DNA of 57,621 bases from Clostridia bacterium (GTDB lineage: Bacteria > Bacillota > Clostridia > JAQVDB01). Of this stretch, positions 18,480 to 50,925 are shown piece by piece (position 1 is the first letter of the stretch; each line of letters begins with the position of its first letter). The DNA lies in NCBI GenBank assembly GCA_028698525.1, contig JAQVDB010000002.1, forward strand, positions 1 through 57,621, in the 5' to 3' direction. Both the position numbers and the translations under genes were made by a program. The notes below the pieces were generated by a model. That model was not told the origin of the DNA. It saw only the letters and a list, made by a program, of their open reading frames with translations, and did no database searches.

Positions 18480-18940
18480 AGCCCGAATATTACATTCGGA
18501 CTCCTCTCTATAAATAAAACGAGCACGTAATGATCTACCTTGCACTACCATGGATCGCTTATTACTCAGCCATAACCTTCCGGCTATGACCGAGCAGGTC
18601 ACCACCCATGATAATGGGTTGTCCGACCATGCAAAGTACCTGCACAGCCATATACAACCTCACGGCTGTATATGACCAACAATATCGGATAAGCATTTAA
18701 TTATCCAATAATCTTCGGCACTTTACATGATCTTTGCTCGACTCTATACGATAGGTTGGAATCTTATTGCAATCAAGCCTCAAAAGGTCATCGACTACAA
18801 TAAAACTTTTCCCCACCGTATAGAATCTTCCCTCCGACTGCATACAAGCCTTTCAACCTGTATGCAATCTTTGGCCGACCTATATATACCCCATTTAGAG
18901 TATATATAAGTCTGGGCTCAACCATTACGTACCCGACATT
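18480..18940 (-). ncRNA. Large structured RNA of unassigned class, copy 1 (paralog of 25036-25490)
   Basis: About 97% identical to copy 2 outside one swapped domain. It has the same closing helix (18520-18532/18923-18935) and a CATAAT -10 at 18942-18947. It lacks a credible ORF. Differences from copy 2 are structure-neutral on the minus strand. Confidence 0.7.
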
Positions 18941-19115
18941 TATTATGATATCCATTTTTGCATTTTATATTCTAACAATTTCATCCGTATTACCCATTAT
19001 ATTTTTACTTTACAGATAAAAATGGAATTATATAAATACATCTGATTAACAAATGCTAAACATAGCATGCATTTGAAAGAAATAACAGTGATGTCATCTT
19101 TATCCTATATTGGCA

Positions 19116-25035: not shown

Positions 25036-25490
25036 CAACAAAAGACCCAGAAAACTTCTGGGTCTTTATAAATAAAACGAGCACGTAATGATCTATCTTG
25101 CACTACCATGGATCGCTTATTACCCAGCCATAACCTTCCGGCTATGACCGAGCAGGTCACCACCCATGATAATGGGCTGTCCGACCATGCAAAGTACCTG
25201 CACAACCATATGCAACCAATGCGTTAAGCTGAGGCTGCATATGATCGAACATTACCAGACAAAATCTTCGGCACTTTGCATGATCTTTGCTCGACTCTAT
25301 ACGATAGGTTGGAATCTTATTGCAATCAAGCCTCAAAAGGTCATCGACTACAATAAAACTTTTCCCCACCGTATAGAATCTTCCCTCCGACTGCATACAA
25401 GCCTTTCAACCTGTATGCAATCTTTGGCCGACCTATATATACCCTATTTAGAGTATATACAAGTCTGGGCTCAACCATTACGTACCCGAC
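25036..25490 (-). ncRNA. Large structured RNA of unassigned class, copy 2 (adjacent to tRNA-Ala)
   Basis: TATAAT -10 at 25495-25500. Closing helix 25078-25090/25476-25488. At least 8 helices, including GAAA- and GGAA-capped hairpins. Strong intrinsic terminator (stem 25043-25050/25058-25065 plus U-run). Many G-U pairs exist only on the minus strand. Confidence 0.75.
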
Positions 25491-25594
25491 ATTTATTATA
25501 GTACCCTTTTTTATTGCATCTATTCCGGAATTTTTAAAGAATTATTATCAGATGATCTATACACATTATTGATGAGTTTTTAAAGATAGCAAAC

Positions 25595-25637: not shown

Positions 25638-25713
25638 TGGTGGAGATGATGGGACTCGAACCCACGACTCCCTGAATGCCATTCAGGTACTCTCCCAACT
25701 GAGCTACATCCCC
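25638..25713 (-). tRNA. tRNA-Ala (anticodon GGC), CCA encoded
   Basis: The reverse complement reads GGGGATGTAGCTCAGTTGGGAGAGTACCTGAATGGCATTCAGGGAGTCGTGGGTTCGAGTCCCATCATCTCCACCA. It has a G3:U70 identity pair, anticodon loop AUGGCAU and a GTTCGAGTC T-loop. Confidence 0.95.
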
Positions 25714-26950: not shown

Positions 26951-27733
26951 TTAAGAGTTAACAACTTGCTTATAGTATCCCTGGAGCTTCTTTATTATCC
27001 TTCTCTCCATCCTAGATACATACATTTGAGAAACCCCCAGCTCACTAGCAACCTTGTTTTGCGTTTTTTCCTCAAAAAACCTGGCATTTATAATCTTTTT
27101 CTCCAGCGGATTTAACCTTGAAAGACAATCATCTAAGAAATATTTATTTTCTATGTCCACCAATCCTTTTTCCTCTCTCCCAATCAATTCAAGCAAGCTT
27201 AAATCATTATCATCGCCTAAATTATCGTAAGTAGCTTCAATAGACTGAGGTGCATAGACTTGTCCAGATTCCATAGCTTCCAATATCTCTTCTTCATCTA
27301 CACCTAAATATTCAGCTATATCACTGACCTTAGGAGTTCTTTTTAATTTTTGTGTTAATTTTTCCTTTGACTTATTTATTTTATAATTTAACTCCTGTAT
27401 CCGCCTGGGTACTCTTATAACCCAACCTTTATCGCGAAAATATCTCTTTACTTCTCCAATAACAGTCGGGGTAGCAAAACTGGAAAATTCATATCCTCTG
27501 TCGACGTCATATCTTTCTACCGCCTTTATAACCGCTAAACTTGCCACCTGATATATATCATCATACTCTATTCCTCTATTAGCATACTTTTTAGCAATTA
27601 TTTCAGCAATATAAAGGTATCTGTGAACCAATTCATCCCTAATCTCTTTGTCTTTTGTAGCTTTGTACTCAGCAAATAATGCTTTATCCCCTTCATAAGC
27701 GGAGGAATTTTCTAAACCGTTTTTTTCAGGCAT
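26951..27733 (-). CDS. sigB: Alternative sigma factor, SigB type
   Basis: Sigma-70 regions 2-4 (RVPRRIQELNYKI, SQMYVSRMERR). It follows RsbV/RsbW homologs and resembles B. subtilis SigB more than SigF. Confidence 0.8.
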   Translation of the reverse strand: MPEKNGLENSSAYEGDKALFAEYKATKDKEIRDELVHRYLYIAEIIAKKYANRGIEYDDIYQVASLAVIKAVERYDVDRGYEFSSFATPTVIGEVKRYFRDKGWVIRVPRRIQELNYKINKSKEKLTQKLKRTPKVSDIAEYLGVDEEEILEAMESGQVYAPQSIEATYDNLGDDNDLSLLELIGREEKGLVDIENKYFLDDCLSRLNPLEKKIINARFFEEKTQNKVASELGVSQMYVSRMERRIIKKLQGYYKQVVNS

Positions 27734-27735
27734 AC

Positions 27736-28191
27736 CTACTCCTCCTCCGTAACAGATTTTCTCATTGTAAGCACAGTACCTCTGCCCTCATTAGACTTTA
27801 ACTCCACTTCATCCATGAGAGATTTTATTATAAATACTCCAAGCCCCCCTTCTTTAGGGTTGGATAGATCAGGCTTTTTTAATTTATCGACCTGCATTCC
27901 TTTCCCTTTATCCTTAACAGTTATTTCTATATTCCCCGGTTCAACTTTGAAATCAATAACAAAACTGTTTTCACATTCTGTACAGCCATGAAGTATTGCA
28001 TTAGTACAAGCCTCTGCTATTGCTACCTTAATATCTTCTATGTCTTCTATATTAAATCCAACCCTATTAGCGATAGCGGACGCAGTCAACCTTGCAACAC
28101 TCACATATTCAGGTTTGTTAGGAAGTATAAGTTGGATTTTATCATATATGCAATCTTCGCTGGATGCGGCAATTTGGGAAAAACTATTCAT
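27736..28191 (-). CDS. rsbW: Anti-sigma-B factor / serine kinase RsbW
   Basis: PNKPEYVSVARLTASAIANRVGF...IAEACTNAILHG closely parallels RsbW. The likely start is ATG 28191, behind GAGGAG. Confidence 0.85.
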   Translation of the reverse strand: MNSFSQIAASSEDCIYDKIQLILPNKPEYVSVARLTASAIANRVGFNIEDIEDIKVAIAEACTNAILHGCTECENSFVIDFKVEPGNIEITVKDKGKGMQVDKLKKPDLSNPKEGGLGVFIIKSLMDEVELKSNEGRGTVLTMRKSVTEEE

Positions 28192-28198
28192 AATAAAT

Positions 28199-28516
28199 TC
28201 ACTCCTCGACAATAAAAATCTTGTTTAAACCCGTTATCTCTAGCAGCCTTTTCACATTATCTCTAGGGCCTTTTAATACTATATTTCCATTATACTCTTT
28301 AACCCTTCTCAAAACCCCTATAAATACTCCCAAGCCTGTGCTATCAATATATACAAGATCATGCATATCCACTACCAAATCTGTCTTTTCTTTTTCTATC
28401 GGATCCAAAAGTTTCTCTTTTAACTTTGGCGCCGTATAAACATCTACTTCACCTTCGACCTTTACATACCAATTACCTTGTGCTTCATTTTTGGTACACT
28501 CCACATTAAAAGCCAT
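28199..28516 (-). CDS. rsbV: Anti-anti-sigma factor RsbV (STAS domain)
   Basis: STAS fold with the phosphorylatable-Ser motif YIDSTGLGV. The likely start is ATG 28516, behind GGAGG. Confidence 0.85.
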   Translation of the reverse strand: MAFNVECTKNEAQGNWYVKVEGEVDVYTAPKLKEKLLDPIEKEKTDLVVDMHDLVYIDSTGLGVFIGVLRRVKEYNGNIVLKGPRDNVKRLLEITGLNKIFIVEE

Positions 28517-30394: not shown

Positions 30395-30645
30395 ATATAA
30401 AAAACCTTCGCCCCCCAAAAGGACGAAGGTCATTCTCCGTGGTACCACCCTAATTGGAAAACATAAAAATATTTTCCCACTTTAAAAATATAACGGTAAT
30501 GCTCCGTATATCCCTACTAAAAATTCAGGATATATACTCGGGGACGGGTTGGAAAAAAGGCGGTTCAGGAACCTTTCAGCCACGGGTTCCACTCTCTTGG
30601 AACACTTCTTTCTACTGTTTCCCTTCATAGATACATGCTTTTTTA
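30395..30645 (-). promoter_or_regulatory. T-box leader controlling proS (tentative CCU proline specifier)
   Basis: On the minus strand: an AGAGAG box; the T-box sequence AATTAGGGTGGTACCACGG (about 30438-30456); and terminator ACCTTCG...CGAAGGTTTTTT (about 30400-30430), competing with the antiterminator. The GGTTCCTGAACC loop offers a CCU codon. Confidence 0.85.
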
Positions 30646-50661: not shown

Positions 50662-50885
50662 TAAAAAAGTTCTCAAATGCACGCAAAAAGCATTTGAGAA
50701 CTTTACCATCATCCTCATAAAACTCACAAAACAGGCAGGTCTCCTGGCTCTGATTCATAGGTACTGCTCAACCTTCCCGGCAACGGCCAGTGGTTTTGAT
50801 AACTTAAGCAGCAGCTCATCATTACAGTGGCGGGTCCGCTCGGGATTTTCACCCGGTTCCCTATTCTCCCTGTGTATGGGCACCT
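50662..50885 (-). promoter_or_regulatory. Cobalamin riboswitch with terminator expression platform, upstream of cobT
   Basis: On the minus strand: AGGGAACCGGGTGAAAATCCCGAGCGGACCCGCCACTGTAA; GCCACTGG..GGGAAGG; B12 box AGCCAGGAGACCTGCC. The terminator stem is 50668-50680/50690-50702 plus a U-run. Confidence 0.9.
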
Positions 50886-50925
50886 ATTTTGATATATGTA
50901 CTTTTCATTTAATTATATCACATGT

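Follow-up and report, generated by a model that had tools for sequence, protein, structure and literature searches.

We analysed a 57,621-nucleotide stretch of a Clostridia bacterium genome (contig JAQVDB010000002.1 of assembly GCA_028698525.1; hereafter the window), in which a first-pass annotation, made from the letters alone, had marked a structured RNA of unrecognised class. The interval was found to carry an RNA gene of 412 nt on the minus strand (copy A), and a second copy of 417 nt (copy B) lies 6.5 kb away on the same strand. The earlier single-locus view had overlooked copy B, at 18521-18937 on the minus strand, although its call of an RNA was right. The RNA family to which both copies belong, here called the five-armed RNA, is real and strand-specific, and its shape is under strong selection. 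The features of the two copies are as follows.

25494..25525, minus strand: promoter-like region of copy A, with GAATA at 25525-25521, then TACTATAATA at 25503-25494, enclosing TATAAT at 25500-25495
about 25488, minus strand: predicted transcription start of copy A
25079..25490, minus strand: copy A, RNA gene of 412 nt, from the P1 5' strand to the P1 3' strand; full-length match to the family profile in nhmmer (E = 1.5e-95)
25473..25487, minus strand: P1 5' strand, forming 15 bp with 25079-25093 (25487-25473 with 25093-25079) and uniting both ends; helix 1, two-sided changes at 11 of 15 pairs, 99.1% paired
25427..25470, minus strand: arm P2 (25470-25449 with 25446-25427, about 20 bp), with GCC/GGC pairs, a 2-nt bulge and a 17-bp hairpin; helix 2, 10 pairs with two-sided changes
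25389..25422, minus strand: arm P3 (25422-25408 with 25403-25389), a 15-bp hairpin with a GAAA cap; helix 3
25293..25380, minus strand: arm P4, with P4a of 16 bp (25380-25365 with 25308-25293), a conserved GAAA/CCAA internal loop, P4b of 14 bp and a variable tip; helices 4 and 5
25183..25285, minus strand: arm P5, with P5a of 15 bp (25285-25270 with 25198-25183), a variable insert (25269-25246) and P5b (25245-25205); helices 6 and 7
25103..25172, minus strand: arm P6, with P6a of 14 bp (25172-25159 with 25116-25103), an internal loop and P6b of 15 bp with a GGAA cap (25154-25140 with 25135-25121); helices 8 and 9
25041..25067, minus strand: intrinsic terminator of copy A, a 12-bp GC-rich stem and a T-run (U-run in the RNA)
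18941..18972, minus strand: promoter-like region of copy B, with GAATA at 18972-18968, a 17-nt spacer and TATCATAATA at 18950-18941
18521..18937, minus strand: copy B, second RNA copy of 417 nt (nhmmer E = 1.2e-100; fold of -229.5 kcal/mol, z = -18.9)
18480..18502, minus strand: hairpin 3' of copy B with a 10-bp stem, terminator-like in sequence but with a poor U-run

The RNA measures about 410 nt, or about 450 nt including the terminator, and no credible open reading frame (ORF) was found within these roughly 410 nt of copy A (minus strand, 25500-25036). The minus strand of copy A folds to -229.4 kcal/mol, against -127.7 +/- 6.3 kcal/mol for 100 dinucleotide shuffles (z = -16), whereas the plus strand reaches just -129.5 kcal/mol, 100 kcal/mol worse. 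Furthermore, 30 of the 138 pairs of copy A (22%) are G·U, which become A-C mismatches in the complement, and the RNA is therefore on the minus strand, as the first-pass annotation had argued. Its TATAAT -10 box and its intrinsic terminator, here a T-run after a 12-bp stem (25067-25041), are likewise present, and its closing helix, GAAA and GGAA hairpins, and other hairpin and long-range helices were recovered with covariation support as P1, P2, P3, P4a, P5a and P6b. By contrast, the short hairpin it had drawn at 25162-25177 found no support, as these bases belong to the long-range helix P6a, where 11 of the 14 pairs show two-sided changes.

Copy B was discovered by a motif search with the recurring junction sequence, which matches identically at 18825-18838. 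The two copies share about 98% identity, with few substitutions, outside one variable arm; they diverge in the P5 insert region (18716-18641 in copy B) and in the terminator. Two substitutions in the P2 stem, one from G·U to A-U and the other from U-A to U·G, retain the pairing, and the nhmmer matches of both copies cover positions 3-381 of the 381 in the profile. In a public assembly of the same organism, the Logan contig SRR22315504_173589 (L001, 1-76) terminates within copy A, an expected assembly outcome because the RNA is a two-copy repeat. A guide-like role for the segment that differs between the copies was rejected, since this segment is the P5 expansion site, which is empty in most members, including typical ones, and holds unrelated hairpins of unlike length and sequence in others.

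A covarying family with five arms

Homologues were gathered by several routes. Degenerate patterns on the junction motifs led to three viral contigs, while a pattern scan of 185,579 species genomes yielded 30 loci with 17 true members, and one of metagenomes yielded 117 loci. An nhmmer profile built from the 17 aligned members and run on all fetched sequences then gave 137 matches in genomes, metagenomes and two prophages, 112 of them full length (353-424 nt) and 96 distinct. The true members in the genome scan were confined to Bacillota. The named hosts are Sporomusa ovata, S. malonica, Propionispora, Lucifera butyrica and Thermohalobacter berrensis, of which Sporomusa and Propionispora are endospore formers; the further hosts are metagenome-assembled genomes (MAGs) of Sporomusaceae, Negativicutes, Clostridiaceae, Clostridia and Bacillota. 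Two other routes gave nothing: no RNA was seen upstream of the homoserine dehydrogenase gene hom, the gene downstream of copy A, in the three nearest relatives (Crassaminicella, Marinisporobacter and a Clostridiaceae strain; hom genes 65-68% identical, intergenic regions of 235-280 nt), and BLAST of GenBank phages and of plasmids found no match to the family.

Among the pattern-scan matches, L007 and L040 were discarded as coding sequence, seven more as chance, and six Nocardia loci because they share a common element of the 5' untranslated region (UTR) type. This Nocardia element (L012, L016, L030, L031, L034 and L036), of the form GTCGGTCAAAGCT...GGAAAGGACA...ATG, is unrelated to the five-armed RNA and has the appearance of a conserved 5' UTR, complete with Shine-Dalgarno sequence and start codon.

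Multiple copies are not confined to the window. Several contigs carry two, and one MAG carries three (L018, L027 and L035), each at a contig end. The copies may be diverged and in tandem, about 80 nt apart (L101, 4489-4899 and 4979-5389), or near-identical (L114, 3213-3596 and 6444-6827), which suggests gene conversion or recent duplication; another pair lies at 203-580 and 11239-11620 of L106.

The family fold consists of the 15-bp closing stem P1 and five long arms, P2-P6, around one purine-rich junction. With the 17 sequences, RNAalifold gave 138 pairs, 77 of which show compensatory changes, and 98.0% of the alignment cells are paired, against 34-42% when the partners are slid. The 96 distinct sequences gave 135 pairs, 96.3% paired against 35-41% with the partners slid, and two-sided (compensatory) changes at 99 of these 135 pairs, with 10-13 covarying pairs per helix in all nine helices. 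In both alignments, none of 500 shuffles reached any of the measures. No conserved reading frame was found across the members, in which the longest stop-free stretch of the sense strand varies from 37 to 133 codons. The homologues thus bore out the structured-RNA call both by their covariation and by their lack of a common frame.

The junction is built on a repeated module. Each arm opens with G-C, A-U and U·G pairs (GAU...GUC), with AA adjoining on the 5' side and GG or GA on the 3' side. The pentamer AAGAU had been noticed earlier as a recurring motif with five occurrences; it does recur, with a count of six, and is matched by a partner, GUCGR, which also occurs six times in copy A (shuffling expectation about 0.7-0.9 each). 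Both motifs mark the helix bases, and they number six and six because every arm base has AA-GAU...GUC-GG/GA.

Beyond the junction, P3 is of constant length across all 17 genome and phage members, and its loop, GAAA in most members, varies in metagenome subgroups. The P6b loop is GNRA and the P5b loop GNRA-type in most members, whereas that of copy A is enlarged. At least 16 G·U pairs stay G·U in at least 88% of the members, though adjacent pairs covary freely, and a triplet of G·U, G-C or C-G, and U·G recurs in P3, P4b, P5b and P6b. Internal loops lie about 15 bp from the core. Since the arm lengths, GNRA tips, internal loops and G·U pairs are conserved while the helix sequences vary, selection therefore acts on three-dimensional shape.

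A mutual-information scan detected no pseudoknot or kissing-loop signal and no non-nested covarying Watson-Crick pairs. Its top signal was an extra nested P5 pair (columns 238-349), and the others, all non-Watson-Crick, look like subgroup structure. At columns 366 and 475 of alignment A5 (J5/6 and J6/1; about 25180 and 25097 in copy A), unpaired positions are A/A in 57 and G/G in 39 sequences, a joint change that could reflect a non-Watson-Crick tertiary contact or subgroup phylogeny.

Promoters of the family

When the upstream regions of 90 members were aligned on the RNA start, two boxes proved common, G(T/C/A)ATA and, 17-18 nt on, the heptamer CATAATA, CATACTA or GATAATA, often after a G. 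The end of this -10 heptamer lies mostly 5-8 nt from the first P1 base. In Bacillus subtilis, the consensus is GHATR-N17-18-CATXHTA for sigmaG and GCATR-N15-GGHRARHTX for sigmaF. A loose sigmaG pattern matched 62 of the 90 regions (shuffled mean 2.4; 3.3% of real intergenic windows from the same loci), a strict one 22 (shuffled mean 0.17; 0.8% of intergenic windows) and the sigmaF pattern 23 (0.035; 0.6%), whereas a sigmaA-like pattern matched just two (shuffled mean 0.96). A promoter of the forespore consensus, suitably spaced from the start of the transcript, is what a member of the sigmaF/sigmaG regulon would be expected to have, and the family shows one.

Because the -10 box alone cannot split forespore from mother-cell factors, we set position weight matrices (PWMs) for sigmaE and sigmaK in competition with a forespore matrix, all three trained on experimentally mapped Clostridioides difficile promoters (Saujet et al., PMC3789822, Tables S6 and S7), with leave-one-out accuracies of 37/43 (forespore), 35/47 (sigmaE) and 15/23 (sigmaK). 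With these C. difficile matrices, 76 of the 90 family promoters were classed as forespore, eight as sigmaE and six as sigmaK, and the median scores were 6.05, 0.3 and -1.9 bits, respectively. Copy B scored 12.7 bits as forespore against 3.5 (sigmaE) and 3.0 (sigmaK), and copy A scored 5.7 against -0.4 and -0.2. The phage-borne copies retain the same sporulation-type promoter. We infer, with good support from the promoter boxes, that the five-armed RNA is probably transcribed in the forespore by sigmaF or sigmaG.

Gene context and phage-borne copies

Terminator-like hairpins stand 3' of 64 of 94 family members, and the genes downstream of the RNA, with their orientations, differ in every locus. 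No recurrent protein partner was found, as the 148 flanking proteins (the nearest ORF on each side) match 136 Pfam families; the commonest, peptide deformylase with six matches, reflects synteny within one clade. No tRNA was found in 18 homologous loci.

In the window, a tRNA-Ala(GGC) gene with its own terminator-like hairpin lies upstream of copy A (25638-25713), an incidental neighbour in view of the homologous loci, and hom (24944-23658) lies downstream on the same strand, with the terminator and a separate promoter-like site in between. A cis-regulatory leader or riboswitch was rejected on the grounds of these two elements before hom and of the variable downstream genes and orientations in the family. 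Copy B is flanked by a radical-SAM/DUF4080 gene and a DtxR/MntR-like regulator. Genes recognised by eye from their translations as a spoIIAB-like anti-sigma factor (27736-28212, minus strand) and a sigF-like sigma factor (26951-27733, minus strand) are found on the strand of copy A, 1.5 kb upstream of it. Their sequences suggest that the host may be an endospore former, and their closeness to copy A is probably a coincidence.

Two phage-borne lineages were found, both with the RNA in the DNA-packaging module. In a Sporomusa ovata prophage, the order is terS, terL, RNA, portal (fragmented) and ClpP protease, while in a lambda-like viral contig the RNA directly precedes the genes for the gpA-type terminase, portal and capsid. 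The S. ovata portal gene beside the RNA is broken into three ORFs (L008, 907-2120), and the prophage may therefore be decaying. Over five IMG/VR pattern scans, just three viral contigs carried the RNA. The varied neighbours and the rare phage copies thus mark the RNA as a free-standing gene, occasionally picked up by prophages.

Comparison with known RNAs and proposed role

Neither the window copy nor a distant phage-type member matched any family among the 4227 models of Rfam 15, at the gathering threshold or at E <= 10, and the RNA thus remains without a recognised class, as the first-pass annotation had it. The gathering-threshold matches in the window were T-box, cobalamin riboswitch and tRNA only, all outside the RNA, and the best chance overlap with copy A at E <= 10 was rimP over the terminator (28.1 bits against a cut-off of 47). 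The T-box leader lies at 30416-30637 (minus strand; 126.8 bits, gathering score 93) and the cobalamin riboswitch aptamer at 50717-50902 (minus strand; 113 bits, gathering score 31.5). For want of an Rfam 15 match, identity with ROOL, GOLLD, OLE, raiA, HEARO, RNase P, tmRNA, SRP, 6S, T-box, group II intron or Phage_pRNA was rejected. No description of the family was found in the searchable open-access part of the literature, including the main Breaker and Weinberg discovery papers, and the family is new within the limits of that literature and Rfam 15.

ROOL and GOLLD, two of the large ornate RNAs of bacteria, build cages made of RNA alone (PMC5737381, PMC12286853), and other large orphan RNAs with similar conserved features form homo-oligomers (PMC12286853). 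ROOL and GOLLD resemble the five-armed RNA in being large, structured and free-standing in Bacillota, with closing stems and GNRA loops and without a linked protein gene. Like it, they occur both within prophages and outside them (PMC5737381), and the conserved helix lengths are compatible with assembly in both cases. ROOL, however, is longer, with six junctions, three pseudoknots and a tRNA association, whereas the five-armed RNA has 353-424 nt, one junction and no pseudoknot signal. The resemblance to ornate RNAs had been proposed earlier, together with the statement that none of them matched, which held; the supporting argument from tRNA adjacency did not, because ROOL and GOLLD often stand beside tRNAs and in prophages, whereas the 18 homologous loci contain no tRNA and just two lineages have phage genes next to the RNA. 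We know of no sporulation-type promoter reported for ROOL or GOLLD.

Among RNAs connected with sporulation, Bvs196/S547 and CsfG are forespore-specific, sigmaF/sigmaG-dependent RNAs of Bacillus (PMC9147052) that share with the five-armed RNA a free-standing non-coding gene, a forespore-type promoter and an intrinsic terminator. We used the Bvs196 region of L158 as an outgroup and, informally, as a positive control for promoter type; the validated region has GGACATTATAAT, and many five-armed members have the similar GGACAAATTAATA or GGACATATTAATA. Homology to Bvs196/S547 was nevertheless rejected, as nhmmer --max at E <= 100 gave no match in the hinT-ecsA region of two Bacillus genomes (L158 and L159), from which the GUCGR and AAGAU motifs are also absent. 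In L158, the hinT-ecsA region with S547/Bvs196 (1105-1500) contains the motif AAATGAGGTG(T/C)TT three times as well as the box GGACATTATAAT. Bvs196, with 294 nt, -82 kcal/mol and a proposed base pairing with messenger RNAs (PMC9147052), is far less stable than the five-armed RNA, and its host is Bacillus rather than Negativicutes and Clostridia. OLE and raiA are, like the five-armed RNA, large conserved structured RNAs of Bacillota, and raiA is tied to sporulation phenotypes, its loss affecting sporulation (PMC10861870). OLE is linked to oap genes and membranes, and the raiA motif lies beside comFC and raiA, whereas the five-armed RNA has no conserved neighbour. CsfG, a small RNA with a range across Bacilli and Clostridia, differs from the five-armed family in size and distribution. 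The packaging RNA of phage phi29 (pRNA) assembles on the portal into a ring of five or six units. It invites comparison, since both phage-borne copies lie in the packaging module and there are five similar arms; however, it is an oligomer of units of about 120-170 nt, whereas the five-armed RNA is a single chain of about 380 nt without a Phage_pRNA match, and more than 95% of its members are chromosomal with no phage genes adjacent.

We consider it somewhat better than an even chance (about 0.55) that the five-armed RNA is the structured, trans-acting product of a free-standing gene, transcribed in the forespore and architectural in role. The forespore RNA polymerase with sigmaF or sigmaG would transcribe the RNA during sporulation and stop at the intrinsic terminator, and the product would be an architectural molecule of the forespore or spore, either as a protein scaffold or as a particle that self-associates through tetraloop and internal-loop contacts. 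Such a role would be preferred because arm length, GNRA tips, internal loops and wobble motifs are conserved, rather than single-stranded sequence, by analogy with other large RNAs; a base-pairing small RNA or a cis-regulator is unlikely. Several points weigh against this proposal. The promoter assignment is a prediction from sequence, the matrices come from C. difficile with leave-one-out accuracies of just 65-86%, sigmaE and sigmaK share a similar -10 box, and 14 of the 90 members are classed as mother-cell. The forespore score of copy A is low (5.7 bits), and copy A additionally has a perfect sigmaA-type TATAAT. Moreover, the upstream regions of homologous genes are non-independent samples, and the hosts other than Sporomusa and Propionispora may not all be endospore formers. 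Finally, the scaffold or assembly role is put forward by analogy with ROOL, GOLLD and OLE. In a further-reaching version, which we hold to be unlikely, the forespore-made RNA would self-associate through its three GNRA-tipped arms, internal loops and G·U motifs into an RNA-only or RNA-protein particle stored in the dormant spore, a developmental-stage-specific equivalent of the cages that ROOL and GOLLD form, and the gene would have been taken up by prophages as a way of exploiting sporulation.

Other explanations were weighed against the forespore-transcribed architectural RNA. An accessory RNA of phages or mobile elements like ROOL and GOLLD, which are also known from prophages and beyond (PMC5737381), would act in virion production or packaging and leave the chromosomal copies as remnants. 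The copy between terL and portal in the S. ovata prophage, the other upstream of the lambda-like terminase genes, the multiple copies in some genomes and the assemblies that break at the RNA would fit this explanation, which we nonetheless regard as unlikely, given that five IMG/VR pattern scans gave just three viral contigs and GenBank phages none, that no phage family recurs among the 148 immediate neighbours, that the window copies sit among housekeeping genes (hom, radical SAM and a DtxR-like regulator), and that the phage copies keep the sporulation-type promoter. Slightly less probable again is a decoy or sponge, in which several molecules of a single protein would be held by the five repeated AA-GAU...GUC-GG motifs or by the GNRA tips, in the manner of CsrB, or a sporulation RNA polymerase holoenzyme would be sequestered, in the manner of 6S RNA. 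The six AAGAU and six GUCGR motifs, the module conserved at the base of every arm, and a stand-alone and possibly abundant transcript with a strong promoter and a terminator speak for it; yet the repeats are at the core junction and more probably build the junction itself, no Rfam match to 6S or any sponge family and no linked protein gene were found, and a simple sponge would not need the conserved arm lengths and the G·U pairs far from the repeats.

A large ribozyme with the conserved junction as its active site is improbable. Its size and the near-invariant junction nucleotides GUCGGCCAAAGAUU, AGUCGG.G.G.AGA and GUCGAGC.AAGA recall other large bacterial RNAs, but these nucleotides mostly extend helices, and the searches found no pseudoknot or long-range tertiary covariation, no substrate-like element and no match to any Rfam ribozyme model. 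That the element is no RNA gene at all, and instead a repeated DNA element such as a miniature inverted-repeat transposable element or a cis-acting leader of hom, is scarcely credible: it would account for the presence, 6.5 kb from each other, of two almost identical copies whose ends pair, and for the position of copy A upstream of hom on the same strand, but it fails the strand-asymmetry test (22% G·U pairs and a plus strand folding 100 kcal/mol worse), and compensatory changes preserve RNA pairing. In addition, the terminator and separate promoter-like site precede hom, no two loci agree in the genes downstream and their orientations, and no such leader stands before hom in the relatives.

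Among bacterial non-coding RNAs longer than 350 nt, about a dozen classes have intricate, conserved folds, and those understood so far are nearly all ribozymes, core ribonucleoproteins or, lately, self-assembling RNA cages. The five-armed family adds at least 96 distinct sequences with an unusually clean structure, nearly all of it supported by covariation, and its size of about 400 nt is suited to cryo-electron microscopy. Cultured hosts are at hand in Sporomusa ovata DSM 2662, S. malonica DSM 5090, Lucifera butyrica and Thermohalobacter berrensis. Unlike other orphan large RNAs, the family has a promoter signature that offers a testable biological handle, the forespore programme of Negativicutes and Clostridia, and it may thus make two questions approachable: what large orphan RNAs do, and how RNA contributes to spore development and dormancy.

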